NCBI GenBank assembly: GCA_964503595.1
Contig: CAZDAM010000003.1
Location: forward strand, 5,844-69,843
From: an uncultured bacterium
GTDB taxonomy: Bacteria; Muiribacteriota; UBA6191
Reading direction: 5' to 3'
DNA: 64,000 bases
The position numbers and the translations under genes were made by a program. Shown piece after piece: positions 12,100 through 48,700 of the stretch. Position 1 is the stretch's first letter. Every line of letters starts with the position of its first letter. The notes beneath the pieces are model-generated. The model was given only the letters and a program-made list of their open reading frames with translations, was not told the origin of the DNA and made no database searches.

Positions 12100-12196
12100 C
12101 AACCAATCGGATCTGCATTATAGTTGGAATTTTATGCGGTAGAAATGCGGCACGAGGCTTTACACAAATCCAGCATGATCCGAGGATAGCCCTATC

Positions 12197-12226: not shown

Positions 12227-12236
12227 AAAAAGGGGC

Positions 12237-15463: not shown

Positions 15464-15466
15464 ATT

Positions 15467-18400: not shown

Positions 18401-18511
18401 ATTCAGCGACCTCTGGCGGTAGTGGTTGCCGGTGGGGTCATTTCGGATACCTTGCTGACTCTGCTCATTTTGCCCTGTCTTCTGGGGCTTTTTCACAAGG
18501 AGGTGGAATGA
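15467..18511 (+). CDS. czcA: Heavy-metal efflux RND transporter (CzcA/CusA family, HME-RND)
   Basis: 1014 aa, 12-TM RND topology with two large periplasmic loops. HME-type conserved blocks 'AIDFGLVVDSSVILVEN' and 'GAPFAALGGILAL'. Confidence 0.8.
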   Translation: MKRLIDFSLKQKAAVVVIALLIMLMGVHSALNLPLDAFPDTTPVMVHVNAEAEGLGPLEIEEQILRPLERTLLATAGVWEIRSLARFGFGQIILIFTDGTKLMHARQSVLERLNGFQLVDGLAPPELGPPATGMGEVFHYTLSSPIRDLKSLMDLQRYELEPRLASVSGVAEINAWGGLLRRAEVLVDLKKLRKYDLRLKDVFEAIRSQVSARGGGGIALGGEYHLIQGDTRYRKLEDIENAVVSTVEGIPVLVSDIGQVIDGHALRRGAVSMNAEGEVLLGLGFMSFEQNGREVSRGLEQALESARDILPEDVSTQVIYSRETIVNAVLQTAGSNLVFGSALVFVVLLVFLGDLRAGLIVALSMPFCLLFAFCGMRVIGIPGTLMSLGAIDFGLVVDSSVILVENTWRRLRGKQDCNRDETVSEASMEMRQATIFGELILILTYLPILFMAGAEGKLFRPMAITIMLALAGSFLWSIFIVPVLSSWFLKPGVQKEARFLKPLKILYLYCLKSLLPRRKIAVACAFLALIGGGFMASRLGARYLPRLEENTLVLSTVRMPGISLEENLVQSRDLEAYLLRRFPHEIRAVLTRIGSAELATDPMGLEQADVFLDLFDKKHWKRAHSQVELQELVRSELESFPGIKIVMTQPIEMRMNEMEAGIRSDVGILIYGENFQELAQRALEVEALVKTLPDAVDVSAEKITGGPMVRIQAHPSELGRYGLMGEDVLNLVEAIGGVPVNLLIQGEKRYDVVVRLPEEMRQDPEKLGGLQLMTEAGGQIRLDAVSDVVMEDGPVLISRERTRRRVVVQASVAHSDVGGFVTRLKEQLERSLEWNTGLSFELGGQFRHYESARRGLVFSISLTLILIFFLLQASTGNLRDTFCIMSGAPFAALGGILALSLMNLPFSISAGVGFVIVCGVSMLNGLVMISTLRRRERKFLNRSLILAALERLQPVLMTALVAFFGFLPMVFSSGIGAEIQRPLAVVVAGGVISDTLLTLLILPCLLGLFHKEVE

Positions 18512-20908: not shown

Positions 20909-21594
20909 TTCTCGCCTTCAAGTCCGCAAACAAGGTTGGCAGGGACAGATTCCCTGATTTTTTTGGGCTGGGCCAGATTGAGGTTGGCCATGAACTGAAC
21001 AAAACCGTCCTCACTGAGTGTCAGGCGTGGATTCAGCTTTTTCTCCTGTCCAACTGTGGAGCTGGTATGGCCTTTGTAATCGTGGGCCGGGTAGATCCGT
21101 GTTCCTTCGGGTAGAGTGAAAATCTTGCTGTGCACGGACTGATAGAGCCTGTGGCTGTCTCCCTGCTGGAAATCCGTACGGCCACAGCCCCGAATCAGCA
21201 GGGCATCTCCGGTAAAGACCATATCTTCGCAGGCATAGCTCATGCAGCTGTTGGTATGTCCGGGAGTCATCAGTCCCCGGATTTTATGTTTCCCGAAAGA
21301 AAGTTCCTCTTCATCCTTTAAAAGAATGTCTGCAAGCTCCACCCCACTGGCGTGGCTCAGAACAATTTTAGCTCCGGTTTTCTGGCGGATGTGACCTGAG
21401 GCGGTGATGTGATCAGCGTGAACATGGGTGTCCAGGATATAAAGAAGCCGGATGCCGAGTTCATCGATCAGTTTGAGATCCCTCTCCATGGTTTCACGAA
21501 CGGGGTCGATCAGAATGCCTTCCAGGGTTGTTTCGTCTGCGAGCAGGTAGGTATAGGTGGATGATTCGTGTTCAAACAGCTGATGGAAGATCAT
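20905..21594 (-). CDS. MBL-fold metallo-hydrolase, persulfide dioxygenase (ETHE1/Blh)-like
   Basis: 'LDTHVHADHITASG' (HxHxDH) metal site, about 229 aa. Co-located with TauE and YeeE as in sulfur-detox clusters. Confidence 0.65.
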   Translation of the reverse strand: MIFHQLFEHESSTYTYLLADETTLEGILIDPVRETMERDLKLIDELGIRLLYILDTHVHADHITASGHIRQKTGAKIVLSHASGVELADILLKDEEELSFGKHKIRGLMTPGHTNSCMSYACEDMVFTGDALLIRGCGRTDFQQGDSHRLYQSVHSKIFTLPEGTRIYPAHDYKGHTSSTVGQEKKLNPRLTLSEDGFVQFMANLNLAQPKKIRESVPANLVCGLEGEK

Positions 21595-21700
21595 GGGAGT
21601 CTCCTTTTTACCCGGTTTTCATTCTGATTCTGCCACAGCCAGGAAGGAGGCAATATGACCGGGATCAGGATTTGAATTTTTTTTTCATGAAAATCCAGGA

Positions 21701-32506: not shown

Positions 32507-33331
32507 TCAGGGAACAGAAGGGACCAGTTTATGGATTTCCTCCTGAAGGATGCGCATTCCCCGGTTCCAGTCCTTATCGCAGTGAGCCGAGATATTGAGA
32601 CGGAAACAGTTGGCATGGCGGCCGGAGGTAGAGAAGACGGTGCCGGGAAGAATGAACACTCCCCGTTCGCTGAGTCTCCAGAAAAGAGCCTCGGCATCCA
32701 GATCCGGGACTTCCACCCACAAAAAGACTCCTCCGGAAGGCATGGTCATGCGGGAATTTCCCGGCAGTCGGGAGGGGAGATCCAGAAGGATTTCATCCAG
32801 GGCCAGATTCATGGCTTCCATGCAGCCGCTGGTGACGAGAATTTCCTCCGGGTTGATGGGAGTGCCGCCTTCCACCATGTGGGCGGCCAGAATGGTTCGA
32901 AGTTCGGTGAGACCGGCGACCGGGGCATAGGAGAGGAGACTTGGCTGAAGCATGGCCTCCCGGAGAAGATCGGCCAGGGTCTTCTGGGGCATCAGGCTGA
33001 GATGAAGGCTGGCGGAGCCCAGATCGAGCATATCGGGCTTGCGGAAAAACTCGGTGATGCCTTCATTTTTGGGTTCGGGACGGGTGGCAATCGGAGAGCT
33101 GGGTCTGTGTTCGGCCCGCCTGACGAAAAAGCCGGAGTGTTCACGGGTTTCGATTTTTCCGAGACTCTCCAGTTCGTAGTAGGCCTTGAGGATGGTGTTG
33201 CGGCTTACTCCCTGCTGATACATCAGATCCCTGACGGAGGGCATGCGGCTTCCGATGGGATAAACTCCCTGTTCGATGCCTTTCAAAAGCGTGGAGGCAA
33301 GGCGCTGCCAGGCAAAACCATCCGTTCCCAT
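32507..33331 (-). CDS. MocR-like GntR-family regulator with an internally deleted aminotransferase domain
   Basis: GntR wHTH 'SVRDLMYQQGVSRNTILKAYYELESLG'. An AAT-like N-part then joins directly to the C-terminal small domain 'GGVFLWVEVP...NCFRLN'. Only 274 aa against about 470 expected. Confidence 0.55.
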   Translation of the reverse strand: MGTDGFAWQRLASTLLKGIEQGVYPIGSRMPSVRDLMYQQGVSRNTILKAYYELESLGKIETREHSGFFVRRAEHRPSSPIATRPEPKNEGITEFFRKPDMLDLGSASLHLSLMPQKTLADLLREAMLQPSLLSYAPVAGLTELRTILAAHMVEGGTPINPEEILVTSGCMEAMNLALDEILLDLPSRLPGNSRMTMPSGGVFLWVEVPDLDAEALFWRLSERGVFILPGTVFSTSGRHANCFRLNISAHCDKDWNRGMRILQEEIHKLVPSVP

Positions 33332-34470
33332 CAGCCTCCCATGGCCAAAGCCAGAGTCTCAACCTGCTTTTTGGTGTTGAACATGTGAAAAGAGAGCCTC
33401 AGGTTTCCCTCGCGAACGCTGGCATCAATTCTTTCCTGCCTGAGTCTTTCTTCCAGAAGAGCGGATTCCATGTTTTTGAGCTTAAGGCAGACAATGGAAG
33501 ACTGTCCACTGGGCTCACAGACTTCGACATTGCCAGAGGGGACAATATCAAGAAAGTGCCGGACCAGAGCCATATTATGCTCTTCAATCTGTTTCAGGCC
33601 GATTTCAAGAAAGAGCTGAAGGCTTCCTTTCAGAAGGGCCATGGGAAGCATGTTCGGGGCCTGTCCGCGATCAAAGCGCCGGGCGCCGGGCAGGGATTCG
33701 GTGGTGTATTTCACCAGGCTGCCGACTTCCTTGCTGTTGGGGCTGGAAAGCCAGGAGGCATGGGTACGCCGAATCTGGTCCAGGGCGTTGGGAGAGAAGC
33801 GGGCAAAGGCATGACCATAGGGGCCGAGCATCCATTTATAGCTGACGCAGGCCAGAATATCGATCACTTCCAGCTCTTCCTTGCGGATCCCGCGTGAGCC
33901 CAGACACTGTGAGGCATCGACCAGAAACAGGATGCCCCGCTTCTTGAGCTCTCTGCCAAGTCCGACAATATCCAGGCAGGTTCCGGTATCAAAACGCACC
34001 AGACTCAGATCCACGAGTCTGGTCTGTGGTGGCAGGTTCTGGATAAGCTGGCCGATATCGGTGAAATCGGCGGGCTTCTGACGATGCAGGGTGAATCCCA
34101 GCTGCTCTTCATTGATCATCCAGGGCAGAATATTGGAAGGGTAGTCTCCTTCCATGACAACGATGGCATCGCCGGGCTGGTAGGTGATGCCGTTGACCAC
34201 ATGGGAGATGATTTCGGATACCGAGGTGGAATGGGCGACTTCATCGGCAGGACAGCCAATCACCTGGGCCAGAAGAGTCCGCATTTCTTCTGTCAGATCG
34301 ACCCAGGCCCGGTAAGGATAGCCGGAAGGATCCATTTCTCTTTCCAGAGCTTTCAGGGCCAGAGTTTTGGCACGGGCCGGAGAGGGGCCGAAGTAGGCGC
34401 TGTTAAAAAACAGGGTGGAGAGATGGGCAAATTCCTGCTGTACGGTCTCAGACTCCAGTGCGGCCATCAT
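33331..34470 (-). CDS. Aminotransferase class V-fold PLP-dependent enzyme (cysteine desulfurase/epimerase-like)
   Basis: 379 aa with class V fold blocks 'GDAIVVMEGDYPSN' and 'ILFLVDASQCLG'. Start/stop abuts the MocR-like gene. Confidence 0.6.
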   Translation of the reverse strand: MMAALESETVQQEFAHLSTLFFNSAYFGPSPARAKTLALKALEREMDPSGYPYRAWVDLTEEMRTLLAQVIGCPADEVAHSTSVSEIISHVVNGITYQPGDAIVVMEGDYPSNILPWMINEEQLGFTLHRQKPADFTDIGQLIQNLPPQTRLVDLSLVRFDTGTCLDIVGLGRELKKRGILFLVDASQCLGSRGIRKEELEVIDILACVSYKWMLGPYGHAFARFSPNALDQIRRTHASWLSSPNSKEVGSLVKYTTESLPGARRFDRGQAPNMLPMALLKGSLQLFLEIGLKQIEEHNMALVRHFLDIVPSGNVEVCEPSGQSSIVCLKLKNMESALLEERLRQERIDASVREGNLRLSFHMFNTKKQVETLALAMGG

Positions 34471-34817: not shown

Positions 34818-35747
34818 GTGTTTTCTTGCAAGCTGTGTGATGCTCATCAAGCAAAGATCTCTGAGCATAAAGATGCAAAAAGCGGCGAGATCCTGTCGAT
34901 CGCTTTTTGTCAGTCCTGTGGTTTGGTGCAACAGACCGAAATTGCCTCAGATGAAGCGCTAAAAATTTATTATTCACATCATTATCGAACGGATTACAAG
35001 AACACTTACAAGCCTAAACTTAGATACGTTTTTCGTGCAGGCAATGCGGCGTTGAAACGCCTGGAATTTCTGCAAAGAGTGATCTCGAAGCCAGAGGCGA
35101 AGTCGCTCATTGACATAGGTGCGGGTGGCGGCGAATTTGTCTATCTGGCCCAGAAGAGTGGATTCCTGGCGCGTGGGATAGAGCCGAATCAGGGTTATTC
35201 GGAATATGCGCGTGACGAATATGGTGCTCGCGTGGATACCCTTATGCTGGATACATTAGAAAACGCATCTGCAGATGTTGTTACGCTGTTTCATGTATTT
35301 GAGCATATGGCCAAGCCGCTAGAAACCATGCGTAAGATTTCAGACATCCTGACCAAGGATGGCTATCTCTTTATTGAAGTTCCGAATATTCTTCAGGCTG
35401 ATGCTTCGCCGCATAACATCTTCTTCAAGGCGCATTTGTTTTACTACAGTCGCTACACGCTTGAGGCTGCAGCTGCGCCGTTTTTTGAAACATTGTTGGT
35501 AGAGGATGGTGGCAACCTTAAGATGCTATTTCGAAAGAAGTCCGTTGCCTTGCCCGCAGTTGTGTCACAAAACTCTGAAGCGGTTATCCAGACACAGCTG
35601 CGACTACACCACAAGGGGTGGATTGAATACTTATTCAAAGCTGGAGGAGCTCTCAAGCTTTTCCGGAGAATTGTTCAGTCTCGACAGGAGAGCACTCTGG
35701 CGGATCCAAGTGCTAAAGCATTGCTTGACCGCTTATTTTTGCAATAG
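34818..35747 (+). CDS. Class I SAM-dependent methyltransferase with N-terminal zinc-ribbon (C-methyltransferase-like)
   Basis: 'CKLCDAHQ...CQSCG' Zn ribbon and 'LIDIGAGGGEF' motif I. The gene and its 350-nt upstream region are visibly lower in GC than the flanks. Confidence 0.65.
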   Translation: MFSCKLCDAHQAKISEHKDAKSGEILSIAFCQSCGLVQQTEIASDEALKIYYSHHYRTDYKNTYKPKLRYVFRAGNAALKRLEFLQRVISKPEAKSLIDIGAGGGEFVYLAQKSGFLARGIEPNQGYSEYARDEYGARVDTLMLDTLENASADVVTLFHVFEHMAKPLETMRKISDILTKDGYLFIEVPNILQADASPHNIFFKAHLFYYSRYTLEAAAAPFFETLLVEDGGNLKMLFRKKSVALPAVVSQNSEAVIQTQLRLHHKGWIEYLFKAGGALKLFRRIVQSRQESTLADPSAKALLDRLFLQ

Positions 35748-35791
35748 CAGGACTGCCTCACTGCTTCCCATCATGGAATTCCTCTCTCAGG

Positions 35792-37753
35792 CTACCTCAA
35801 ACTGAAAGACATCATCTCGTTCAGGCTGAAGTCACGGTTGAGAACGCGCAGGCGGATGGAAGAAGTGCGGCTTTCAATCCGGCGCTGAATGAGATGCATG
35901 ATCAGGCGGGAGAGGCGGTTTCCCCAGGGGGTTTTGCAGGACCTGTGCAGGAAGTTCTGCAGAAACTGGGGGCAGTGTTTACGAAACAGGTCATCTTCAA
36001 GGCTTAGAACCAGTTTGACGCTTCCGGGCTGACCCTGGCGTGAAGTCCTTCCATAAAGCTGAAGATCAATCCGGCAGGATTCATATTTCTGGGTGGCCAC
36101 GACATGAAGTCCGCCAAGTTCCTCGACCTCGCGATCCACATGAATATCGGTACCCCGGCCCGCCATATTCGTGGCAATCGTAATGCCGCCGAGTTCTCCG
36201 GCCTTTGCCACAATCTGGGCTTCCTCTTCATGCTTCAGGGCATTTAAGATTGTGCAGGAGAGATCGGAGGCGGCGAGTTCATTGGCCAGCCATTCGCTTT
36301 CTTCTACGGAACGGGTTCCGACAAGAACGGGCTGGTTTTTGCGATGGACTTCGCGAATATGCTTGAGGATGAAGGACCATTTCTCATCAAGGGTGGCGCA
36401 GACGGTGACAGGTTCAAACTCGTAGGTCCGGGGAATGCGCTTGGGGATTTTCATGGTAGGCAGACGGTAGATCTGCCACAGTTCTTCCTGAAGATTCTGA
36501 AGGGTTCCGCTCATGCCTGAGAGGCGCTTGTACAGGCGGAAGTAGCGCTGAAAACTCATGCGGGTATGGGTTTCGGTTGGATCTGATAATTCGAGTTCTT
36601 CCTTGGCTTCAATGGCCTGATGAAGGCCTGAGCCCCAGTTGCGGTGTTCCATGATCCGGCCTGTTGCTTCATCGACAATCACGACTTTGCCTTCTTCATC
36701 AATCAGATACTGCTGGTTGAGGTGATAGAACTCACGGGCAGCCAGGGCCTGATGCACCAGAAACTGGCGTCTTTCCTTGGCTTTCCACATGGCGGGAAGG
36801 GGTCGTACCAGTTCATCCACAAAGCTTTCACCAGCTGGAGTCAGGCGAATGTCCTGGAATTTACGGTTGACGGTGTAGTGTTTGTCGGGTCGCATCTTGC
36901 GGGCGATTTCACAGGCAATCTGGCTGGCTTCCTTGAGAAGTTCGTTTTCTGAGGGGATGGAAATGATCAGCGGGGTGGTGGCCTCATCGGCCAGAACGCT
37001 GTCAGCCTCATCAATGATGGCGGTGTGAAGGCCGCGCATGACCATGGGTTTTGGGGGTCTTCCCTGAAGATTCCGGATTAGAGAACGGTCCCAGTCCAGA
37101 TCCTCCTGGCCCATCCGATCCCGTAGAAAGTCGGCCAGAAGCTCTTTGCTGGTGGTATAGACAATATCGCGGGAATAGGCTTCCTTTCTTTCCCGGGGGC
37201 TCATGGAGCCCGTAACAGAGGCTCCTCTTAGCTGGCAAAGAGAAAACAGGGGCTGCATGAGTTCGGCATCGCGGGAAGCCAGGTAATCATTTGAGGTGAC
37301 AACATGACAGGGAAGGCCGCTCCAGCCTGCCAGAACCGCCGTGATGCCGGCGACGATGGTTTTTCCTTCTCCCGGTTTCATTTCGATCAGGTAGCCATCA
37401 AACTGGGCCAGCACTCCCATGAGCTGAACTGGGTAGGGGCGCATTCCAAGAGAGCGAAAGGATGCTTCGGCCACCAGAGCCAGGGAGTCGGCCAGATTCT
37501 GTTCTTCCGGATTGGGATTTCCACGAAAGATCTTGCGCGCCGATCTGATTTTTTCCTGAAGCTCTTCGGGGGACAGATGGGCATGCTGAAGGGAAATCTG
37601 GTGGATGGCTTCGGCTTTTTTGCGAAAAACCCGCGGGCTTTTGCGCAGGCGGTGGATCAGGCGGAAAAAGGAATGAACCCAGGCATCAAGGCCCTCATAG
37701 GACTTTTTTTCCCTTGGGACGTGAAAGCGCTGGAATTCGGCGGAAAGATCCAT
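35792..37753 (-). CDS. SecA-like translocase ATPase paralog (motor domains only, lacks SecA C-terminal scaffold/wing/CTD)
   Basis: 'MKPGEGKT' Walker A, 'VVTSNDYLASRD', 'IIDEADSVLADEATTPLIIS', 'ATNMAGRGTDI' and 'GGLHVVATQKYESCRIDLQLYGRTSRQGQPGS...SLEDDLFR' are all canonical SecA blocks. Only 653 aa. Confidence 0.8.
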   Translation of the reverse strand: MDLSAEFQRFHVPREKKSYEGLDAWVHSFFRLIHRLRKSPRVFRKKAEAIHQISLQHAHLSPEELQEKIRSARKIFRGNPNPEEQNLADSLALVAEASFRSLGMRPYPVQLMGVLAQFDGYLIEMKPGEGKTIVAGITAVLAGWSGLPCHVVTSNDYLASRDAELMQPLFSLCQLRGASVTGSMSPRERKEAYSRDIVYTTSKELLADFLRDRMGQEDLDWDRSLIRNLQGRPPKPMVMRGLHTAIIDEADSVLADEATTPLIISIPSENELLKEASQIACEIARKMRPDKHYTVNRKFQDIRLTPAGESFVDELVRPLPAMWKAKERRQFLVHQALAAREFYHLNQQYLIDEEGKVVIVDEATGRIMEHRNWGSGLHQAIEAKEELELSDPTETHTRMSFQRYFRLYKRLSGMSGTLQNLQEELWQIYRLPTMKIPKRIPRTYEFEPVTVCATLDEKWSFILKHIREVHRKNQPVLVGTRSVEESEWLANELAASDLSCTILNALKHEEEAQIVAKAGELGGITIATNMAGRGTDIHVDREVEELGGLHVVATQKYESCRIDLQLYGRTSRQGQPGSVKLVLSLEDDLFRKHCPQFLQNFLHRSCKTPWGNRLSRLIMHLIQRRIESRTSSIRLRVLNRDFSLNEMMSFSLR

Positions 37754-37757
37754 TTCG

Positions 37758-39902
37758 TCAGAATTGGTAGCGCTTCTGAAGAAGCTGTTTCAGAAAGAGC
37801 ATGAATTGACCCATCACGGAGGAATCCGCCAGCTCGATACGGATTTCCCCGGTGCGCCCGTGCAGGGTTTTGAGGTTCTCGTGAGGATGGAAGACGGCCC
37901 TGGCTTCAAAGAAGGATTCCTGGGTCTTGAGCCCGTCTTCTCTTTCCACGGCAATATCACCGCCACCGTACCAGCCCAGAGCCATGGAGGGAAGTTCATC
38001 CTTTTCATGGGGAATAACAGTAAACTGGGTGACGGGCAGGGTGATTTCGGACTGCCCCCTGAATTTGAGGCTGGCCTGGGGCTCTTTGAGTTCGAACAGG
38101 TCGTAGGCGTTTTCCTGGGAAACAACGGCCACGAATTCAAGATCCTGAGACGGAAGGATGGCCCCGAGTTCGGCTCCAGCCTTGGCCCAGGTGCCGAGGT
38201 AGCGACGTAGATCCGGGGCAATCCAGGTGCCATTGGTTTTGGCCCGCACGGTAAGTTTGTCCCTGCGATCCTTTAGAAGATCCAGCTTGCGGCCGAGAAA
38301 GGCAATGCGTTCGGAGATGGGCTTCAAATCGGCAACCCGGTTTTCGCGGGCCTTGATTTCAAGCGCTTTGGATTCCTGAATCTGGGCCCCTACCAGCAGA
38401 ATTTCCACGTCCAGATCCGGGTTTTCCAGGCGGGCCAGAATCTGATCCGTCTGAACCACGCTGCCACTGGGGGCAATGATTTCCTTAAGAATACCGGGGG
38501 TCTGATTGTGGATGCGGGTGTAGTCACGAGCATGGATAACACCGGGAGCCCGGATGGAATTGGACATGGGGACATAGAAGAGGAGTCCGATCAGAAGGGA
38601 GATGGTCAGAATGGCGAGGCTTACGGCCCTGAGCCGGACCATTTCCAGGGCCGGATCAAAAAACAGGTAATGTATGAGGTTGTAAACAGGCTTGAGGAGC
38701 CAGGTCCAGGCGGAGATGGCCACGATGATCAGACCGACTTCAAACCACTGGTCCAGAACAAACAGGGCAATCCCGGCAGAAAGCAGAACCCGGTACGCCT
38801 GGGAGGCGAAGCCATAGGAAAGGAGCCAGAAGGACTCGGTGGCACTTGAGGCGGCTCTTTCGATATCCGGCATTCCCAGGATTTTACTTTCCAGAATATA
38901 GCGCCATTCCTCGCGGGATCTCTGGGCCAGATTCGGAATTTCGAGAACATCAGAGAGGATGTAATAGGAATCCAGACGGGTCAGGGGATTTCCATTGAAA
39001 AGAAGGCTTGAAACGGAACCGATGAACATCAGGTTGAAGGCCAGGCTGTTGATGACTCCGGGGCCGGTATGAGACCAGACAATCGTGGCCAGAGCAGCAA
39101 TGAAGAGTTCGACAATCATGCCGGCGGCACCAACCAGGGCTCTTTGCCAGCGGTTTCGGAAGGCCCAGCTTGAAGTGGCATCCATATAGGGCAGGGGAGT
39201 CAGAATCAGAAACATGACCCCCATGGTGTGAACTTCCCCCCCGAAGCGGCGGGTAGCCATGGCATGACCCATTTCATGCAAAAACTTCAGTCCGGCCAGA
39301 CAGATGTAAAGCAGAAAGATATTGGATGGGGCAAGGACTCCCTGGCCACTCTGATAAAGGGCCTGGGGGTTTTCCAGGGCGTACCAGAACCCGGTGAAAA
39401 CCACTAGGGCCCAAACCAGAAACCCTCCCCTGGAGAAAATCATTCTGGTGACATTGTCGTAGCGGACAAGCCAGGTGTGGGGATCCCACAGGGGCATGCG
39501 AAAGAACAGGAAGGACTGGATCTTGCTGGTCAGCTCCTTCTGTTTGGTGCGGGAATAGCGCTCAAAAACGGCCTCTGTATCCGGGGAGTTTTCCACATAA
39601 AGCAGGTTTGAGAGATGAAGCTGGGAGAGGAGACGGATGACGGCGTCCTGGGATGGGGTGTCATCCGGGTTTTCCCGGAGGGATTCTTCCCAGAGATCAT
39701 GCACGGTGGATTTGGGGTTCAGGCGCATGACAAAGCGGTAGGCCTCAGGAGAGAGGCGAAAAAAGCGGGAATTGAAGGGGTCTCTTAAGACGTAGCACAT
39801 TTCCCCACGAAAGAACTGTTTGTGGCTTTGGATGGCGCTGTGAATTCCGGCCCGAAGTTCGGCAACCCGATACCAGGATTCACTGAATAGATTCCCGATC
39901 AT
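37758..39902 (-). CDS. Fusion protein: polytopic M50 (site-2-protease-like) zinc metalloprotease domain plus C-terminal HlyD-like periplasmic adaptor
   Basis: 'HEMGHAM' HExxH sits inside a hydrophobic segment with multiple TMs. The C-terminal 300 aa has biotin-lipoyl-like 'VQTDQILARLENPDLDVEIL', a coiled coil and a beta-barrel. A 4-nt gap to the neighbouring genes. Confidence 0.7.
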   Translation of the reverse strand: MIGNLFSESWYRVAELRAGIHSAIQSHKQFFRGEMCYVLRDPFNSRFFRLSPEAYRFVMRLNPKSTVHDLWEESLRENPDDTPSQDAVIRLLSQLHLSNLLYVENSPDTEAVFERYSRTKQKELTSKIQSFLFFRMPLWDPHTWLVRYDNVTRMIFSRGGFLVWALVVFTGFWYALENPQALYQSGQGVLAPSNIFLLYICLAGLKFLHEMGHAMATRRFGGEVHTMGVMFLILTPLPYMDATSSWAFRNRWQRALVGAAGMIVELFIAALATIVWSHTGPGVINSLAFNLMFIGSVSSLLFNGNPLTRLDSYYILSDVLEIPNLAQRSREEWRYILESKILGMPDIERAASSATESFWLLSYGFASQAYRVLLSAGIALFVLDQWFEVGLIIVAISAWTWLLKPVYNLIHYLFFDPALEMVRLRAVSLAILTISLLIGLLFYVPMSNSIRAPGVIHARDYTRIHNQTPGILKEIIAPSGSVVQTDQILARLENPDLDVEILLVGAQIQESKALEIKARENRVADLKPISERIAFLGRKLDLLKDRRDKLTVRAKTNGTWIAPDLRRYLGTWAKAGAELGAILPSQDLEFVAVVSQENAYDLFELKEPQASLKFRGQSEITLPVTQFTVIPHEKDELPSMALGWYGGGDIAVEREDGLKTQESFFEARAVFHPHENLKTLHGRTGEIRIELADSSVMGQFMLFLKQLLQKRYQF

Positions 39903-39905
39903 GTT

Positions 39906-41753
39906 CTACCACCAGAGGTACAGACGCATGGTGTCCGTAATGCGGTGAAACAGAATCCAGCCGACACTGCGTCTTCCGGCCTTGATGCGGGCCAGGCCGC
40001 TCATGCCGGGTCGCCACCAGCTTTCCGGGCTCTCTACGAACCGGGCCTTCAGTTCGAAGGTGTTCCCGCTTCTGGGGTCTACTCTGGCAACAGGGACCAG
40101 GGTTTCGATTTCAAAGGGGTATTTCATCTGGGGATTGCTCAGAAGAGCCATTTCTCCCTGTCCGGGAACGGTAATCTCATCAATATCTCTTTCGGGAACC
40201 TTCAGGATGAGATACATGGCCTCAGGCTGGGCAATCTGGTACAGAAGATCGCCTTTGTTGATGGGGGCGCCCATCAGCTTTTCCTTTTCCCCCTCAACAA
40301 TGACTCCATCCTGAGGGGCCTTGAGATCGGCCCTGTTCAGGTAGAACCGGACCCGTTCCAGCTCGGCTTTGGCCTGAGCCAGACGGGCTTCGGAGATATT
40401 CATGTCTGCGAGTCGGCCATCGGCACGGGCCTTCTGGGTTTCCCTCTCATAGCGGGTGACTTCGGCCTGGGCTTCGGTGATTTTGAGATGGATTTCCTCG
40501 GTGTCGATCTGAATCAGGGTCTGGCCTTTGGTGACGGTATCCCCGCTATGGGCCAGTACATTCAGAATCACTCCGTCCATGGGGGAGGAAATGTAGGAAA
40601 TCAGATCGGTTTTGAGTTCGGCTCCGACTTCCACATCATAGTCCCAGGTGCCAAAAGTCAGAAACAGAACAGAGGCGAATCCAATCAGGGCCAGGAGCTT
40701 GGCAAAGGAGTTCTCCGGGCCCAGAAGCCACTGAACCTTGTCCTTCAGATAGTTTTTGAGGCGCTCGCCAGCCCATTGATCGTCGGCATGAAGGCGGGCC
40801 AGAACCGGGGCGCTTTGATTGGCAATCAGTCTCAAGGCCATGATTTCCTGGGGGTGGAACCGGCTTGAGGCCTTTTCAATGGTCAGAACTCCGGCGGGCT
40901 CATCCCTGAATCTTAGGGGGAGGCTGATCACCTGAAAGGCACCGCACTGGGACAGAAACTGCTGGTGGGCAGTCTGAATGGTTCCGGGATCCTCATGTCC
41001 GGGGCAGAGGATCTCTTCGTTCTGATCCAGGCTCTCTTCCATGGCATTGGCCAGACGGACACAGGCTTCGGTCTGGGAGTCAAAGCGCTCGAGATGGCTG
41101 ATGGCCTGAATTTTGATATAGGGGTTCTCATGCCAGCCAAGGCTGACCCGGGATACCTGAAACCGGGAGCAGAGATCGTTGACCAGGCTCATGGAGGCCA
41201 GCTGAAACCGCTCGGCCTTCAGAAGCTGGCTGATGACTTCAAGGGAAGAACCGATCATGCCCTGTTCGCGGGTTTCCCCTGTGTCAGGCAGATTTTCCTC
41301 ACTGATCATGGCCAGCAGTCTGGTGCGGATCAGGAGCTCATTCAGGGCTCTTGAGGGCAGGGGGCCCAGAGCCAGAATGATCAGGTGAGGGGTCTGGGAA
41401 CGTTGAGTTTCGTAGGCGATCACGTTCTGAAGTTCGGGAACTTCGGTGCGGATTTTTTCCAGGGCACAGCCTTTTTCCCTCACCCTGGGCAGCATATCCC
41501 GTCCCGATTCGGCGAGCTGTTCCATGAGGGAATTGGCGTGTTCCTTCGGGTTGAATACGGCATCGACCTGAATCTGCTCTGGGCCGGGAGAAAGAATCAG
41601 TCCGGTGTCAGCGCTACAGATTCCACATACGATTCGCAGATAATCGGACCAGAATGCCTCACTTTTTGGCATCTGGCGCAGGGTTTGAAGTTCTGAAAAA
41701 TACTGGGTCTGGTTCATGGGGAACTCGATTCTTCCGGTTCCGAATTTTCTCAT
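39906..41753 (-). CDS. HlyD-family membrane fusion protein with a roughly 330-aa cytoplasmic N-terminal (GAF-like?) domain
   Basis: Single TM 'LLALIGFASVLFLTFGTW'. Then 'GDTVTKGQTLIQIDTEEIHLKITEAQAEV' lipoyl-like, a coiled coil, and a C-terminal beta-barrel 'ARIKAGRRSVGWILF'. Confidence 0.65.
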   Translation of the reverse strand: MRKFGTGRIEFPMNQTQYFSELQTLRQMPKSEAFWSDYLRIVCGICSADTGLILSPGPEQIQVDAVFNPKEHANSLMEQLAESGRDMLPRVREKGCALEKIRTEVPELQNVIAYETQRSQTPHLIILALGPLPSRALNELLIRTRLLAMISEENLPDTGETREQGMIGSSLEVISQLLKAERFQLASMSLVNDLCSRFQVSRVSLGWHENPYIKIQAISHLERFDSQTEACVRLANAMEESLDQNEEILCPGHEDPGTIQTAHQQFLSQCGAFQVISLPLRFRDEPAGVLTIEKASSRFHPQEIMALRLIANQSAPVLARLHADDQWAGERLKNYLKDKVQWLLGPENSFAKLLALIGFASVLFLTFGTWDYDVEVGAELKTDLISYISSPMDGVILNVLAHSGDTVTKGQTLIQIDTEEIHLKITEAQAEVTRYERETQKARADGRLADMNISEARLAQAKAELERVRFYLNRADLKAPQDGVIVEGEKEKLMGAPINKGDLLYQIAQPEAMYLILKVPERDIDEITVPGQGEMALLSNPQMKYPFEIETLVPVARVDPRSGNTFELKARFVESPESWWRPGMSGLARIKAGRRSVGWILFHRITDTMRLYLWW

Positions 41754-41910
41754 GGATATCCGGATTTGACCAGTTTCGCTTTATCGATTCATAAAGTTCA
41801 TTTAAGGTATTGAAAATAGATCATTTCTATTCTTACGTATGGTAGAATTGTCCCCTGAATTTGCCGATTTTTCAGGTGTTAGAGATAAATTTAGGTAGTA
41901 CAGGAGTCCT

Positions 41911-42660
41911 ATGTTTAAAAAGATTGTGCCGATCACTAAAGATGCCCATAAGAAAACAAAGATCAAAGCGTTGGCAAATTTCGAGTTTGCGAAGGACGTC
42001 AACCTTGCGGCCGTGATGGTCCATGAGTTTTCCCGTGCGGCAGCGACTTACCCGATTGTGTTTCTGGAAGACAAGGAAAAGGACCAGTTCCGTCCTACGG
42101 TTCTTCTGGGCCTTGAGCAGGGCGAAAACCTGTTTGTGAAGGAAGGAAAGTGGGAGGCTTCGTACATCCCGGCCATCATCCGCCGCTATCCTTTTGCCCT
42201 GGCAAATACAAACGAAGCGGATAAGTACACAATCTGCCTCGATGAAGGCAGCGATCTGGTTAATGATAAAGACGGCCAGGAGCTTTTCGACGGCAAGGGC
42301 GAACCAAGTGAGCTGATGGAGCGCGTGAAGCGCTATCTGGGCGAGCTTCAGCAGATGGAGCGTTTCACTCAGGAGTTCTGTGCAGCGATGTCCCATCTGA
42401 ACATGTTCACTCCCCTGAATATGAAAGTGCGCCTTGGCAATGAAATCAAAAACATCAATGGGGCCTATGTCATCAATGAAGAGCGCCTGGGCTCTCTTTC
42501 GGATGAAAAATTCATCGAGCTTCGCAAGAAGCAATACATTCCGGTGATTTACTCCCACCTGAGCAGTCTGTCCCAGATTGAGCGTCTTCTGACCTTCAAG
42601 GACAAGAAGGGTGGAGTGACTCCAGATGCCATCGAACAGTTCTCGGAGACCGTGAATTGA
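41911..42660 (+). CDS. SapC family protein
   Basis: About 250 aa with 'YPIVFL' and 'PAIIRRYPF' blocks, which I recognise as the SapC family (named from the Campylobacter fetus S-layer secretion locus). Divergent from the HlyD/SecA-like operon. Confidence 0.6.
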   Translation: MFKKIVPITKDAHKKTKIKALANFEFAKDVNLAAVMVHEFSRAAATYPIVFLEDKEKDQFRPTVLLGLEQGENLFVKEGKWEASYIPAIIRRYPFALANTNEADKYTICLDEGSDLVNDKDGQELFDGKGEPSELMERVKRYLGELQQMERFTQEFCAAMSHLNMFTPLNMKVRLGNEIKNINGAYVINEERLGSLSDEKFIELRKKQYIPVIYSHLSSLSQIERLLTFKDKKGGVTPDAIEQFSETVN

Positions 42661-42680
42661 GTTTGGTTCTCTTCTGTATC

Positions 42681-42739
42681 CCTCCGCCGTGCCAGGCGGA
42701 GGAATGAAAACAATCGGGATTCCGCTACAGGTGTAGCGG
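42681..42739 (+). other. Two tandem GC-rich hairpins between sapC and the giant gene (possible attenuator/terminator)
   Basis: cctccgcc-gtgcca-ggcggagg (8-bp stem) and ccgctac-aggt-gtagcgg (7-bp stem) followed by a T-rich tract. Confidence 0.4.
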
Positions 42740-42788
42740 GGTCCCTTTGGTGTTTCTTGGCAATTTTCGAAAAACGCAGGAAAAACTT

Positions 42789-45700
42789 ATGAGCTCAAAA
42801 ATGAAAAGCCTTGTCAGAACCCAGACCTACATGAAAGCACGCCGCTTTTTTCAGAAATTTACGAAGAAGAAGGAGGCCGCTCCTCAGGTGCTTGATGGCA
42901 GACGGGAACGCTTCCGTCTGGACAGCCTTGAAGAGAGAGTTCTGCTTTCAGCAGATCCGGTTACGGAGACGGCTCATGCGATTTTGCACGAACCTCAGAA
43001 GAACGAGTCCCGAATTGAGCTTTTAAGTGAGGCTTCCCTGCGTCAGCCTACCCTAAGCCTTCAGGAACAGCACCCTCAGGCCGCAATTGTTCTGGATGCC
43101 GGCACGCTTTCCCAGAACAGAAATTCCCTGGAATCCTCCCTTGTGATCGGCGAGAACGAAGTTCTTGGCGGCAGTGGAAATCTGGGCATTCACCTGATGA
43201 ATGATGGCACCGTTGCTCCCGGATATTCTCCCGGAGTTCAGAATGTAGCCAGCTTCACCCAGGCCGAAGGTGCGACCCTTGAAATCGAAATCGGGGGCAG
43301 TGGGGTTGCCGGGGCCTCCGATGGTTTTGATCAGCTCAATGTCTCCGGTCTGGCAAGCCTTGGTGGCAAGCTTGAAGTCACCCTTCTGAATGACTACAAA
43401 CCTCAGGTCGGAGACACTTTCGACATCCTTACCTTTGGCTCGGTGAGCGGAGAATTTGATTCGGTAGGCGGTCTTTACGGATTTTATGCAGATTATTACT
43501 TCGATGTGGTGCAAAAATCCGATCGCATTCAGCTGGTCGTCAAGGAGCTTTTGCCCGGAGATACCTTCGAGATTGCCGCTGACGAGGCCTTTCGAGATGC
43601 CATGTCGGAGTTTCTGGCTCAGGATTATCTCAAGAAGCCGACTTCCATTACCTTTACCGGCTCCATTGATCTTGGAGATGCCTTTTCGGTTGGAGGCACC
43701 TTTACCCTGAATCAGGTCAGCACCGGTCAGGATGTCACTTTAAGTGATGGGTCCACAGTCAATGTTTCGATCAAGACTCTGGGGATGCGGGGCGCTTCAG
43801 CTTCTTTGGGTGGAAGCTTCGGCCTTCAGTTCGGCGGAGCTGATCTGGGAATTGCCATTTTTGATGCAACTTCCGAAGAAGATGGCCGCAGTTGGGTTGG
43901 AGCCCAGGGAAGTCTGGAAAGCGTTTCTCTTTTGAATCTTGGAAGCTACGGCATCCAGGGAGAAAACCTTCAGCTTGACATCTTCCAGGCCCTGGGAGAA
44001 GACAATGATGTTTTAATCGATTTGTCGGAAACCCCGTTGAGTATTTCTGATGGCAGTGGAACACTGGCTGAATTCTCCAATGACGGAGTTTTTGGGGAGT
44101 ATCTGAACGTGGCTGGAAATCTCCAGCTCACCATGCCTTTTTTGAATGTCTCCGGAGATTTCTTTGTCTCCGCGGATGATGCCTCCCTGTTTCTGGCCGG
44201 AGAAAATGTCACCGCTAGCTTTGAAGCCGGAGGCATGACTCTGGGTGTAAACAATGCCCGCTTTGGGGCCTACATTTTTGAAGATCAGAGCATGGTTCTG
44301 GAAGCAACCGGTGGCCTTGTCATGAGTGGAGGCGATTTCACGCTTCCTACTGGCGATTCTGTGAGCCTCAAATACAACACCACTGGCATCGAATTCACCG
44401 ATCTGGAAATGGCGATTGGGGAGAGATCCTTCACTTTTGGAACCATCGAAGCTTCCGAAGAACTCCTGGAATTGAGCATCAGTGGCTTTGAAGCCAACCT
44501 GGGCGGAGTGTTCGGGCTGTCCGGAGACTTCGGTTTCCGCAAAAACGGGGAAGATCTGAATGTGGTGGCTCAGAATGCTGCCGTAAGCCTGAATGCTGGC
44601 GGCTTCAAGGCTGGAGTGAAAGACGCCACCCTGGGTCTGAAAATGAGCGATCTGGGAACCGCCATGGAAGCAACCGGCGCGGCCTGGTTTGAGCTTGGAG
44701 ATGCAGTTTCCCTGAGTGCTGACAGTGTCCAGGTGCTCTATAACGAAACCGGAGAAGACCTGATTGGAACCAGTCTCTCGGCTGCTTCTCTGGAATATAC
44801 CTTTACAGCAATTGAGGGTTCGACGACCCTTCAGCAAGTGGCTGTAAGTGGGGCCAGCCTGGAAGTGGCCGGCTTTGTGCAGGCCAGCGGTAATCTTGCC
44901 GTCAAGCGGGATGAAGTTGCTCTGGAGCTTTCGGATGAGTCCCTGGTTCTGGCCGAGCTTTTGACCATTGGTGGCAAGAATGTAAGCGCCTTTGCCGGCC
45001 TGAATGGTGGCTCTTCCTCCGCTTTGGGCCTTCAGATCAGCGCCCTGACTTTCGGGGTCGCCCTGATGAGCGAAATCGATGGTGAGGAGAGAAGCTGGAC
45101 AGCCGTCTACGGGGAAGCCGAATCCGCCGGATTTGTCGGTCCAGACAGCCTCACGATTTCTGCCAGTGCCCTGAAACTCGAACTGAATCTGGCCTCAGAA
45201 GACGGCCTGGTAGTGGATTTCTCGGAATTCAGTCACAGCGTTCCCGTTGGTGTGGGCGAAAGCCTCAGCCTTACGATGGACGCTCAGCGGGGCGAACTGA
45301 TCAGTGTCAGTGGCAACCTGAACATCCGCATCTTTGATTTCTTCGCCGTCTCCGGAGGCTTTGCCCTGGAAAAATCCACAGAAACTCTGAGGCTTTCGGA
45401 TGAAAGCGAAGTGGAAGTGGAGCTTCTGACTCTGGGAACCCAGGGAGTCTCGGCTTTTGCCGGTCTGAATCATGGCAGTGACAATGCCTTTGGTTTCTCT
45501 TTGGGAGATGTGAGCCTGGCTTTGGTCATGGCCACAGAAAAAGAGGATTCCTCCCAGTCCTATGTGAGCCTGAAAGCTCAGGCTGGCAGCGTAGCCTTTG
45601 AAGGAATCCCCGGAATCACCATTGCCGCAGATACCCTGGCCGTGGAACTGAACCTGGCATCAACAGAAGGTCTTTTGGTGGACTACTCCACCAAAGCCCT

Positions 45701-48700
45701 TACCGTACCCACGAGTTCTTCCACCAATATGAGCCTCACTATGGATTCCGAGGATGGCGAGCTGGTACGCGCTTCCGGAAATATGGATCTGGATCTCTTC
45801 GGCTTTGTGCAGGTTTCCGGGGGCTTTGGTTTTGAAAAGAAAACTGAAGTGGTGACTCTGGCTGATGGCAGCGAAGCCGAAGTCGATCTGATGACACTGG
45901 GGGCAAATGATGTCTCCGCATTCGCCGGAATCGCAGCTTCAAGCTCAAGTCGGGTGGGCCTTGCCTTAAGCGGACTGAATTTCGGTCTGGCCCTGATGTC
46001 CGATAAAAGCCGGGATGATCGCTCCTGGCTGGCCCTGAAAGGAAATGTAGGGGCTGCCAGTTTTGAGGGAATTCCTGGAATGGAGCTGGCCGCAGAATCC
46101 CTCAAGCTTGAAATCAACCGCTATACCGGAGAAGAAGGCGCATCCACAACCGAAACGATTGTGGAAACCTCCACGGAAACGGTCACGACGGAAAATACTC
46201 AAACCACCACAACAACAACCAAAACCGACACGATCTACAAACTGGATCTGAATGGGGTTGTGGCTCCGATTACTTTGAAACTGGGCGGAGAAACAGCCAC
46301 GATTCAGGTAAGCAAAGGGGCCGATTCGGATTCATTGCTGACCTCGATCAGGCAGGCTCTGGAAGGTTTTGCTGCCATTGGCGAAGGCAATGTTACCGTA
46401 AGTGGCAATCTGGTGGCGGGCTTTGAAATCCGCTTTCTGGGCGATCTGGCGGGAACTTCGGTGGAAGGCCTGAGTGTTGAGACCAGCTTCTTTGAAGTTT
46501 CCACAAACAGCTCGGAAACAAAGAATGCTCTGGTGGGCCGAAGTGAAAGCCAGACTCTGACTATTTCCAATCCAACCCTCAAGGGTTCGGGACGCTACAC
46601 CTTAAGTCTGGATGGCAAGAGCACCGGCGAAATCCGTTTTGCCGGATCCGATGTGGGCAACAATGCCCGCTATATCCGTGAGGCTCTGGAAAAAGTTTCC
46701 GGTATTGGAGCGGGTAATGTGAAGGTGGTCTACGACCAGAACTCCTCCACAACCAGCCAGCGCTATATCATCACCTTCAAAAAAGGTCTGGCCTACACCG
46801 ATATCAGCCTGCTTCAGGCCAATAACAATGGTTTGAAGAATGCGATTGTGGCCGTGACTCCGGGGCAGGATGGTTCCGTTGCCAGAGGAGAAACCAACCG
46901 GGTTTCCATCAATACCCTCGGCGATGTGGATCTGAACCTGCGCTTCACGATCAACGGCAAGGAATACCGCACGGATTATTTTGAGTCTGACTCTTCCGCC
47001 GACAAAGTGAAGTTCATGATTGAGCGGGAAGTCTACAGGGATGATATTGAAGTCCAGGTGACCGAGATCGCCAAAGGCACCTGGGACATCACCTTTGGAG
47101 GGGCTGCAACTGGGGTTTCCCTGGATGATTTTCTGGTGAATACATCGCAAAGCATTGAGTCTGCCAAGCTTCTGGTTTCCCAGATGGGTAAGACGGATGT
47201 AGAGACGGAGACGACGACTACCAGCAGCACGGAAACCATTGAGGTGGAAGAGACCACGGTTCTGGAATATCCGGCAGATGTGGTGGTGGACTTCTCTGAG
47301 AGCAATCTTGATGTTCTCACCGGACCCGACGCGACCATTGGGATTGATTTTGACGGAGATCTTGGAAATCTCCTGAGAGCTTCCGGAAATCTGAATATCA
47401 ATCTGTTCAATTTCTTCTCGGCATCCGGGGCTTTTGCTCTGGAAAAGTATGCCAGCGAAGTGACCCTGGATGATGGAAGCACCCTGGAAGTGGATATGCT
47501 CACCATCGGCGGGCATGGAATTGATGCTTTCGCGGGCCTTAACGGAGGAAGCCCTTCCCGTGTTGGCTTTGAGCTCGAGGCTGCTGATTTTGCCCTGGCG
47601 ATTATGACTGGCGTGGAAGACCCGGCTCTTCAATACACCAGCCTTCATGCCAGTGCCGGAAGTGCGGCTTTTGTTGGCTTTGACAATCTCAGAATTGCGG
47701 CAACCGACATCGAGATCCAGATCAATCAGGCTGATGAATACGGCTTTGTCGTGGACTGGCTGAAATCTCCTCTGGCCCTGACGACTGGCCCTGATTCTTC
47801 CACAGAAATGAATATGGATGGCTCGCGTGGAGAGCTTCTGAGCCTGTCGGCCAATATGGAAATCGATGTGGCCGGATTCTTCATGGTCAACGGACGCCTG
47901 GCCTTTGAAAAGTATGAATCCGTTGTGAAGCTTTCGGATGGCAAGGAAGCCGCAGTCAATCTGATGACGATTGGCGGCAAGAATCTCAATGCCTTTGCCG
48001 GAGTCAACGGAGGCAGTTCCGATCGGATGGGGATTGCCATCGACAATACGGAATTCGCCCTGGCCATGCTTCAGGAAAAAGGCGAAGGAGGCCGTAGCTG
48101 GACTTCTTTGAAAGCAACGTCTGATTACGCTGGCCTGGTGGGCCTTGATGGAATTCTGACGCTGAACGGGCAGGGCATTGCCGTCAATATCAATGACAGT
48201 GCTGAGGATGGCACGGTTGTGATGTATGGCGAAGAGGGCATGGCCATTCGGACCAGCGCGGATACCTCGCTGATTCTTGATATGAACCACCCAGGCAAGA
48301 TCATGCGGGCTGAAATCTATCGGGCTACTCTGGATATTGGTGGTTTCATCCAGATTCTGGGTGGAATCTATTTTGAGAAGGCCGAAAACGTCGAAGTGGA
48401 TGTTCGTACCGGCCTGCCGCTGGACTTGAGTGCCAATACTGGTTTGAGCTCCATCAGCTCGGATCTGCAACGTCTTAAGAATGATGGAATTCTGAGTGAG
48501 GACAATCAGACTCTGACCAATCTGAAGGTGGATTCCCTGACTTTTGGAGCCGGAGACGTTGATGTCTTCGTTGGCTACGGCCCTTATTTTGTGGATTCCA
48601 ACAATGATGGTGTCATCGATAGTCATGACACCCCCAACGAGGATGCATTCGGGTTTTCCCTGGAAAATATCGATGTTGGCTTTGTCACCATGCAGGCGGC

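Follow-up and report, generated by a model that had tools for sequence, protein, structure and literature searches.

The stretch of DNA considered here (the window) comprises 64,000 nucleotides of contig CAZDAM010000003.1 from an uncultured bacterium of the Muiribacteriota, and the subject of this analysis is a gene within it that encodes a HlyD-type membrane fusion protein (MFP) with a large cytoplasmic N-terminal region. The gene, here called GAF-MFP, lies on the minus strand, which corrects the earlier note on this DNA, and heads a three-gene operon with gaps of 3-4 nt that forms part of a widespread gene cassette. The second gene begins 3 nt past the GAF-MFP stop codon and encodes a membrane metalloprotease joined to an MFP-like domain (M50-MFP), and the third encodes a SecA-like ATPase. 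On the opposite strand, a SapC-family gene precedes the gene for a giant protein (Table 1). The earlier note had drawn an analogy with the control of giant adhesins, and a giant protein of secreted type is indeed encoded next door.

Table 1. Features of the GAF-MFP locus, in window positions.
Feature	Position	Strand	Description and basis
GAF-MFP gene	39906-41753	minus	tandem GAF, one transmembrane (TM) helix and HlyD-type adaptor; open reading frame (ORF) list, Pfam, model
GAF-A	41304-41711	minus	residues ~3-138; divergent, poorly conserved GAF-like domain
GAF-B	40776-41276	minus	residues ~148-314; best conserved part of the protein
Single TM helix	40650-40706	minus	residues 338-356; hydropathy, flanking charges, model helix 337-355
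Periplasmic MFP body	39909-40649	minus	residues 357-603; lipoyl, short alpha-hairpin and beta-barrel domains, no membrane-proximal (MP) domain
M50-MFP gene	37758-39902	minus	714 residues; PqqD-like N-domain of the RiPP recognition element (RRE) type, polytopic M50-type metalloprotease, C-terminal MFP-like domain
SecA-like ATPase gene	35792-37753	minus	653 residues; nucleotide-binding domains NBD1 and NBD2 and preprotein cross-linking domain (PPXD); Pfam SecA_DEAD, SecA_PP_bind, P-loop_SecA
SapC-family gene	41911-42660	plus	249 residues; Pfam SapC, E 4e-73; divergent from the operon, directly upstream of the giant gene
Giant gene	42789-64000	plus	>7,070 codons, cut by the window end; NCBIfam NF012209, Pfam HemolysinCabind

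The GAF-MFP reading frame is 615 codons long and starts with an ATG at position 41753; the public NCBI/ENA gene call for the identical sequence (P0001) is a 603-residue protein that starts at Met13 (ATG 41717). The shorter form is the probable product; the N-termini of homologues align with Met13, and the difference of 12 residues is immaterial to the findings below. Residue numbers are those of the 603-residue form unless the 615-residue form is named. Pfam recognizes a GAF domain (PF01590) at residues 190-315 of the 615-residue form (31.4-32.9 bits, cutoff 22.4) and the HlyD_D23 (55.3 bits) and HlyD_3 (54.1 bits) families in the C-terminal half, which NCBIfam groups with RND/HlyD-type adaptors at scores under every curated cutoff. 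The only hydrophobic helix of the protein, FAKLLALIGFASVLFLTFG, is preceded by four lysine or arginine residues within 20 positions and followed by one within the next 20. A single helix with positive-inside flanks indicates an N-in topology with about 337 cytoplasmic residues (349 with the longer start), close to the figure of roughly 330 given in the earlier note, and this arrangement is conserved among homologues. On these features GAF-MFP is a bitopic inner-membrane periplasmic adaptor with its body in the periplasm.

Comparison of the periplasmic part with the PDB using Foldseek retrieved the adaptors MacA, MexA, AcrA and EmrA (E 7e-17 to 1e-12). The alpha-hairpin of the model is short (helices 407-433 and 436-461), and the body terminates in a conserved amphipathic helix (residues 585-602) ending in ...LWW, in which W602 is conserved at 97% and R598 at 91%. 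Such a C-terminal helix is not standard among MFPs. The C-terminus of M50-MFP, ...GQFMLFLKQLLQKRYQF (37761-37811, minus), resembles the GAF-MFP helix (39909-39962, minus) by eye only. RefSeq names genes of the GAF-MFP type 'efflux RND transporter periplasmic adaptor subunit'. Genes for ABC, RND or MFS transporters are absent from the conserved cassette in the loci inspected, where the operon partners are instead M50-MFP and the SecA-like ATPase. The window also holds an RND efflux pair at 14225-18511 (plus), consisting of a 412-residue MFP and a 1,014-residue AcrB-family pump followed by a PhzF-like gene, which lies about 20 kb away and is unrelated to the cassette. An ABC exporter at 3923-5680 is likewise distant and has its own gene context.

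The fold of the cytoplasmic region was assigned from AlphaFold2 models of the full-length protein (13-sequence alignment; predicted local distance difference test, pLDDT, 80.8) and of residues 1-337 alone (12-sequence alignment; pLDDT 79.4). Both models contain two alpha/beta domains, at residues ~3-138 and ~148-314, that are connected by a disordered linker (140-149), and the C-terminal helix of the second domain (289-332) runs on towards the TM helix. Fold comparison was needed because the cytoplasmic profile, searched against PDB sequences, gave marginal matches only (RhlR, E 0.008; GAF proteins, E 0.07-0.9). The module has the antiparallel sheet flanked by helices that characterizes the GAF fold. 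Foldseek aligned it over 330-440 columns with tandem-GAF and GAF-PHY proteins, and the nearest structures by fold are the ligand-binding GAF domains of PDE2A (GAF-B), PtsP, NifA and CodY. GAF-A lies below Pfam detection in the window protein; the GAF_3 family is found at its cutoff of 27 in the homologues P0021 (27.2 bits) and P0036 (27.0 bits), and GAF_3/GAF_2 match the GAF-A region below cutoff in P0026 and P0081. The models and fold comparisons identify the cytoplasmic N-terminus as a tandem GAF, in which GAF-A evolves fast and GAF-B is strongly conserved. The earlier note had proposed a GAF-like module; the GAF fold stands, but two such domains lie in tandem in place of the single one implied.

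Conservation was assessed on an alignment of 129 representatives that share no more than 50% identity pairwise. Between the window protein and its 128 relatives, GAF-A averages 16% identity, GAF-B 33% and the periplasmic body 35%, and across the whole protein GAF-B is the best conserved part and GAF-A the worst when all 129 representatives are compared. Near-invariant residues of GAF-B include N180, R190, G194, S207, P239, R249, P267, R269, E281, R282 and R296. The most conserved element is a near-invariant helix between beta2 and beta3 (residues 217-232, consensus AMEExLDQ) that contributes E223, M226, E227, E228, D231 and Q232; this helix probably lies off the usual pocket side of a GAF domain, which would speak against a ligand sensor. 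The helix that connects GAF-B to the membrane carries a D313-x-W315 motif, which is DQW in the window protein and DRWFG in most relatives, and K340, where the TM helix meets the cytoplasm, is invariant (129/129). The NKFDE signature of cyclic-nucleotide binding was absent from both GAF-A and GAF-B in all 129 aligned representatives.

M50-MFP matches the Peptidase_M50 family of Pfam and the RND_mfp family of NCBIfam, with a further match to daptide_HExxH that falls below cutoff (E 2e-45), and it contains six or seven hydrophobic helices. Its catalytic motifs, HEMGH and NGNPLTRLDS, are both kept in 76/76 homologues, and the PqqD domain is above the Pfam cutoff in the homologues from loci L001 and L083; a PDB sequence search with M50-MFP gave no matches. 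The SecA-like protein aligns to residues 18-604 of the ~800 residues of Bacillus subtilis SecA, and Pfam reports no scaffold or wing family in it. Because the alignment ends at about residue 604, the established structure of SecA implies the absence of the wing, of the C-terminal tail and of most of the scaffold, two-helix finger included. In SecA the two-helix finger enters SecY. The GEGKT, DEAD and GRGTD motifs of the SecA-like ATPase are kept in 65-66 of 66 homologues. With their catalytic motifs conserved, both partners are predicted to be catalytically competent.

A profile of the cytoplasmic region alone, searched against 1.84 billion cluster representatives (50% identity), matched 5,574 proteins at E<=1e-3, of which 948 reached E<=1e-30. 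With few exceptions, the top 150 matches are 600-650 residues long and carry the module at N-terminal residues ~1-355. A first, word-indexed homology search had found 13 full-length relatives only, and the rarity that this suggested was overturned by the exhaustive profile search together with a genome scan. With one genome per species, the scan found relatives at no fewer than 516 loci in at least eight phyla, under the labels Desulfobacterota, Verrucomicrobiota, Nitrospirota, Omnitrophota, Spirochaetota, Lentisphaerota, Chitinispirillaceae (a family of the Fibrobacterota), Latescibacterota and Gammaproteobacteria, and a cultured carrier, Vreelandella andesensis DSM 19434, is among them. The best relatives of the window GAF-MFP are about 43% identical to it and come from metagenome-assembled genomes (MAGs) of Nitrospirota, Desulfobacterota and 'Proteobacteria'.

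Synteny was examined in 84 loci, of which 80 came from the species scan and four from metagenome contigs. M50-MFP follows GAF-MFP in 82 of these loci and the SecA-like gene is present in 71, and most loci without M50-MFP or the SecA-like gene stop at a contig edge. The usual cassette adds a TolC-like outer-membrane efflux protein (OEP) and a short MFP of ~280 residues just upstream, in most related loci. Overall, the cassette is composed of the TolC-like OEP, the short MFP, the tandem-GAF MFP, the PqqD/M50-MFP and the SecA-like ATPase, sometimes with SapC or a DUF3467 protein. SapC, which flanks the operon in the window, also adjoins the cassette in loci L004 and L083; the latter is the locus of Vreelandella andesensis DSM 19434 and has a LEPR-XLL giant as well.

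Two alphaproteobacterial plasmid loci illustrate variation in this gene set. On Thalassospira marina pCSC3H3 (L085, record positions 193606-212571) RefSeq annotates a LEPR-XLL protein of 4,033 residues, DUF3467, GAF-MFP, M50-MFP, short MFP and TolC. Plasmid pMSC49a of Methylosinus sp. C49 (L086) encodes a giant of >8,800 residues, DUF3467, GAF-MFP, a 'PqqD family protein', the SecA-like protein, short MFP and TolC. The protein encoded at 23575-25491 of L086 (WP_244635385.1) is named 'prepilin peptidase' by RefSeq; it shares 41% identity with the window SecA-like ATPase over 606 residues, and the name is likely a mis-annotation. In both plasmids the DUF3467 gene sits between the genes for the giant and GAF-MFP (L085 19555-19851; L086 19097-19417), and DUF3467 is also present in two Chitinispirillaceae loci (L052 ~12095-12325; L079 ~21417-21677). 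The DUF3467 protein possibly plays an accessory or chaperone-like part; none was found in the window.

The giant gene that adjoins the operon is absent from the ORF lists because its frame runs off the end of the window, beyond which the C-terminus of the protein lies; the stop-free frame extends from 42708 to 63998. The N-terminus of the protein consists of a basic stretch and the motif FRLDSLEERVLLSADP (nt 42912-42980), and this leader scores 25.5 bits against the NCBIfam family NF012209, 'LEPR-XLL domain' (LEPR-8K; cutoff 17), and is devoid of the hydrophobic core of a Sec-type signal peptide. The protein is acidic and rich in glycine, serine, threonine and aspartate, with one cysteine in 7,097 residues. 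HemolysinCabind is the only Pfam family found in it, in one RTX block at about residues 3,870-3,910, and no tandem DNA repeats were found in the gene. Minus-strand 'ORFs' of up to 674 residues between 43053 and 62987 (for example 46602-48626, 52818-54614 and 50790-51719) have an odd composition and are probably shadows of the giant plus-strand frame, and we reject them as genes; the one that was scanned, 46602-48626, had no Pfam or NCBIfam match. Between the SapC stop at 42660 and the giant ATG at 42789 there is a terminator-like hairpin at 42716-42745 (plus) with a 13-bp stem containing eight G-C pairs, followed by TTTGGTGTTT; it could act as a terminator or attenuator of transcription that reads through from SapC into the giant gene.

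This leader recurs on giant ORFs that adjoin the cassette in 22 loci, namely the window and 21 others, among them L085 of the two plasmid loci, and the leaders conform to the consensus F-x-L-E-x-L-E-[PQE]-R-x-L-L-S-A-D. These LEPR-XLL ORFs commonly start 190-950 nt past the end of the SecA-like match. The independent RefSeq annotation agrees, as the giant of L085 is named 'LEPR-XLL domain-containing protein'. The 22 co-localizations span at least six phyla and are not a matter of chance, and the LEPR-XLL giant is a probable substrate of the cassette.

The operon has a published counterpart. Kamneva, Poudel & Ward 2015 (PLoS One; PMC4452313) described a conserved locus of truncated, secondary SecA_DEAD proteins that also encodes Peptidase_M50/HlyD, HlyD/biotin_lipoyl and GAF+HlyD proteins, sometimes with an OEP. 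They proposed that SecA stands in for an ABC ATPase, that the M50 protein provides the membrane part and that the GAF protein is 'regulatory/sensory', while describing the biological role as 'completely unknown' and naming no substrate. By gene content the window operon is assigned to this type I secretion-like locus: the gene set is the same and the phyla overlap (Verrucomicrobia, Proteobacteria, Nitrospirae and others). The published description differs in that the GAF domain is treated as single there and is tandem here, in that a PqqD-like domain was not noted, and in the extra short HlyD and OEP genes of its locus, in place of which the window has SapC. Both the published architecture with its 'regulatory/sensory' reading and the operon context of M50-MFP and the SecA-like ATPase were missed by the earlier note.

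Other characterized systems resemble the cassette in part. The E. coli HlyD protein and other MFPs of type I secretion systems (T1SS) share the N-in bitopic topology and a body of lipoyl, hairpin and beta-barrel domains without an MP domain; HlyD, however, has ~60 cytoplasmic residues against the ~337 residues of folded tandem GAF in GAF-MFP, and its hairpin is much longer. The cytoplasmic N-terminal domain of HlyD recognizes the substrate and triggers recruitment of TolC. A T1SS relies on an ABC transporter partner and a C-terminal signal, whereas the present cassette has no ABC gene and its candidate substrates carry an apparent N-terminal LEPR-XLL signal. Such a cargo leader, a PqqD-like recognition domain and a membrane protease encoded with MFPs recall peptidase-containing ABC transporter (PCAT)-type exporters, which have HlyD partners, and the machinery of ribosomally synthesized and post-translationally modified peptides (RiPPs), including the M50-type protease of daptides. 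In those systems, however, the cargo is a peptide and a C39 protease resides on the ABC transporter, whereas here the cargo would be thousands of residues long, the M50 protease is fused to an MFP, the motor is SecA-like and leader cleavage is hypothetical.

The LapD/LapG-LapA system, with which the earlier note drew an analogy, is similar in concept only, in that a cytoplasmic signal controls the surface display of a giant protein. LapD is a receptor for cyclic di-GMP (c-di-GMP) with a degenerate GGDEF-EAL module, a HAMP domain and a periplasmic LapG-binding domain and is not an MFP. None of these features is present in GAF-MFP, in which Pfam and NCBIfam detect no GGDEF/EAL or HAMP domain, and the LapD mechanism, sequestration of a protease after secretion, is unrelated; the analogy does not hold. 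The Lap system also includes the periplasmic cysteine protease LapG and a retention module at the N-terminus of the adhesin, where the giant of the window carries a LEPR-XLL leader. Tandem-GAF signalling proteins (PDE2/5/6, CyaB2 and the GAF-PHY unit of phytochromes) share two serial GAF folds and a long C-terminal output helix with GAF-MFP, but identities are 8-18%, GAF-MFP has neither the NKFDE signature nor bilin-binding features, and instead of an enzyme its output is a TM helix with a periplasmic adaptor. West-Roberts et al. 2023 (10.1101/2023.11.21.568195) reported SecA DEAD and preprotein-binding domains without scaffold or wing in giant proteins of Omnitrophota and Actinobacteriota and proposed that they aid export; those domains are located inside the giant itself, whereas the motor described here is a separate protein of 653 residues whose gene shares an operon with those for MFPs and a protease. 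For Chlorobium chlorochromatii, a 2026 preprint describes LEPRxLL leaders on two giants flanked by SapC and TolC genes, with no tie to the cassette, and in the literature available to our search we found no paper linking the cassette to LEPR-XLL or giant proteins.

The interpretation we place first, at about an even balance of probability, is that the cassette exports the neighbouring giant and that the tandem GAF serves as a cytoplasmic docking or coupling platform. The cassette would form an envelope-spanning exporter in which the N-terminal leader of the giant LEPR-XLL protein is bound by the PqqD-like domain and is perhaps cut at the M50 site, the SecA-like motor drives the unfolded chain forward with its N-terminus leading, and the MFP paralogues provide a periplasmic conduit to a TolC-family channel. 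The tandem GAF would bind a conserved partner, most likely the SecA-like motor and/or the substrate leader, and engagement would be relayed through the GAF-B helix and the TM helix to the periplasmic adaptor. By analogy, the module may be regarded as an enlarged version of the ~60-residue cytoplasmic domain of E. coli HlyD. Docking is favoured because GAF-B is conserved across phyla in the manner of a protein-protein or fixed-ligand interface with near-invariant charged residues, because the motor has lost its SecY-docking parts and would need a membrane dock, and because there is neither a nucleotide signature nor a recurrent cyclase neighbour. We advance more tentatively, and with less confidence than the interpretation just given, the idea that the cassette is a distinct, so far unrecognized one-step secretion pathway of diderm bacteria for LEPR-XLL giants, in which a SecA-type motor acts free of SecYEG, an M50 domain within the membrane replaces the membrane domain of an ABC transporter, and a tandem-GAF gate couples engagement of the motor or substrate (or a ligand) to opening of the conduit.

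Several observations weigh against export of the giant with the tandem GAF as docking platform. A LEPR-XLL ORF lies within the ~10-kb flanks in only 16 of the 47 loci that have at least 1.5 kb beyond the SecA-like gene, so the substrate link is frequent but not universal in cis. The window cassette itself appears to lack the OEP and the short MFP: tblastn (E<=1e-6) found no homologue of either in the 64-kb window, a result that rests for the OEP on two cassette-type queries and leaves room for a divergent TolC-family gene, and up to ~13 kb of the 77,270-nt source contig lies beyond the window. At five positions with 85-93% conservation in the family the window GAF-MFP also has another residue (E223A, R249T, R282K, H336N and T337S), and it alone among the 129 representatives has alanine at 223; the protein reads as an atypical member of its family. 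Given these residues and the missing genes for the OEP and the short MFP, the locus may have diverged from the usual form. The PqqD match of the window M50-MFP is sub-threshold (E 0.12). The plasmid locus L085 keeps the tandem-GAF MFP without a SecA-like gene in the locus, and its motor may be encoded elsewhere or may be dispensable; this weakens the version in which GAF-MFP docks SecA and argues against an exclusive role of that kind. GAF domains classically bind small ligands, and a single, universally conserved ligand would explain the conservation of GAF-B equally well. Finally, in Methylobacterium extorquens AM1 (META1p2399-2402) the GAF gene is reported to be expressed and the rest of the operon not (PMC4452313), which hints at a separate regulatory role.

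The last points lead to the most serious rival, that GAF-B or GAF-A is a sensor that binds a metabolite or second messenger and so gates assembly or activity of the exporter. This accords with the 'regulatory or sensory' role put forward in PMC4452313, with a genuine GAF fold whose closest structures bind ligands, and with the tandem arrangement and continuous output helix, which are the layout of PDE2/5/6 and CyaB2; we nevertheless judge it rather improbable, as there is no nameable ligand and the PDB sequence profile is marginal for GAF or LuxR-type proteins (E >= 0.008). Sensing of cyclic nucleotides is unsupported, since the NKFDE signature is absent (0/129) and adenylate or guanylate cyclases neighbour just 2/87 loci. 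As for c-di-GMP, genes encoding response regulators with GGDEF and EAL domains (RR-GGDEF-EAL), one or two per locus and ~50% mutually identical, lie beside the cassette at L001 4055-5815, L010 16051-19525, L014 15514-17217 and L075 15703-19174. Of these loci L010, L014 and L075 are labelled Nitrospirota/Thermodesulfovibrionia, and L001 also has a hybrid histidine kinase. A lineage-specific link to c-di-GMP is possible in that subclade, but a general one is rejected, as such neighbours occur in one subclade only and Rfam, which yields only a tRNA in the window, shows neither the operon nor the giant gene to be accompanied by a known riboswitch. The sensory module and regulated export suggested by the earlier note are thus partly supported: the fold stands, sensing is unproven, and its suggestion of nucleotide or signal gating finds no support in the signature, the neighbours or the riboswitch search.

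Less probable again is a passive scaffold, in which the tandem GAF merely di- or oligomerizes the adaptor and sets the stoichiometry of a mixed MFP ring. Tandem-GAF proteins commonly dimerize in parallel through their GAF domains, the three MFP paralogues of a cassette imply a hetero-oligomeric ring that needs order, and GAF-A evolves freely; however, the near-invariant charged and polar residues of GAF-B, the invariant K340 and the D313-x-W315 motif exceed what self-association usually demands, and we consider this explanation unlikely. Slightly less likely still is a different cargo, with the cassette exporting or processing a RiPP-like peptide or a small molecule, GAF-MFP acting as an efflux adaptor and the adjacent giant being incidental. 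The resemblance of M50-MFP to the daptide RiPP protease, its PqqD-like RRE, the 'efflux RND transporter' name in RefSeq and the 31 of 47 sufficiently long loci without a LEPR-XLL ORF within ~10 kb would fit this explanation. It is opposed by the presence in the cassette of a preprotein-translocating SecA-type motor with PPXD and by the 22 independent co-localizations with the same leader in at least six phyla; in addition, no RiPP-type modification enzyme stood out among the genes called or annotated in L001-L004, L085 and L086, an inspection of these six loci that did not extend to precursor peptides or to a systematic scan of all loci. That the N-terminal extension results from a mis-called start, a frameshift or an assembly fusion is scarcely credible: the uncertainty of the start is confined to 12 codons, the same 600-650-residue architecture recurs in nearly all of the best 150 of the 948 representatives, the reading frame is unbroken and the model keeps its confidence across the junction. 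The homologue N-termini, the model and the profile search refute an artefact, and the possible mis-called start raised in the earlier note is settled in favour of a real extension.

The GAF-HlyD architecture as such is not new, having been reported in 2015 (PMC4452313), and the family has been described computationally and is experimentally uncharacterized. What is new here is the tandem-GAF assignment, the PqqD-like domain of the partner and the recurrent association with LEPR-XLL giants, three points from which a hypothesis of secretion that can be tested is gained for a cassette hitherto without a role. The cassette bears on how proteins of 5,000-35,000 residues may be exported with neither a Sec signal peptide nor a recognized C-terminal T1SS signal, as is the case for the LEPR-XLL giants of Chlorobium chlorochromatii and many giants encoded in MAGs. 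GAF-MFP marks the cassette in hundreds of species from at least eight phyla, repeatedly beside giants. To our knowledge, no one has shown TolC and three MFP paralogues to work together with an M50 protease and a SecA-type motor. Should the substrate link prove true, the machine and its leader signal are identified along with culturable hosts for testing it, and the tandem GAF would be the obvious handle on how the exporter is switched on.

Minor features of the window complete the description. A promoter scan of 35500-43000 performed no better than on shuffled sequences, and across the whole window one tRNA, at 11980-12051, is the only element to reach the Rfam gathering score. Elsewhere, a class-V aminotransferase gene (33331-34470, minus) adjoins a gene at 32507-33331 (minus) for a 274-residue GntR/MocR-like protein, in which the aminotransferase domain is matched in fragments and which appears truncated relative to MocR regulators of ~450 residues.

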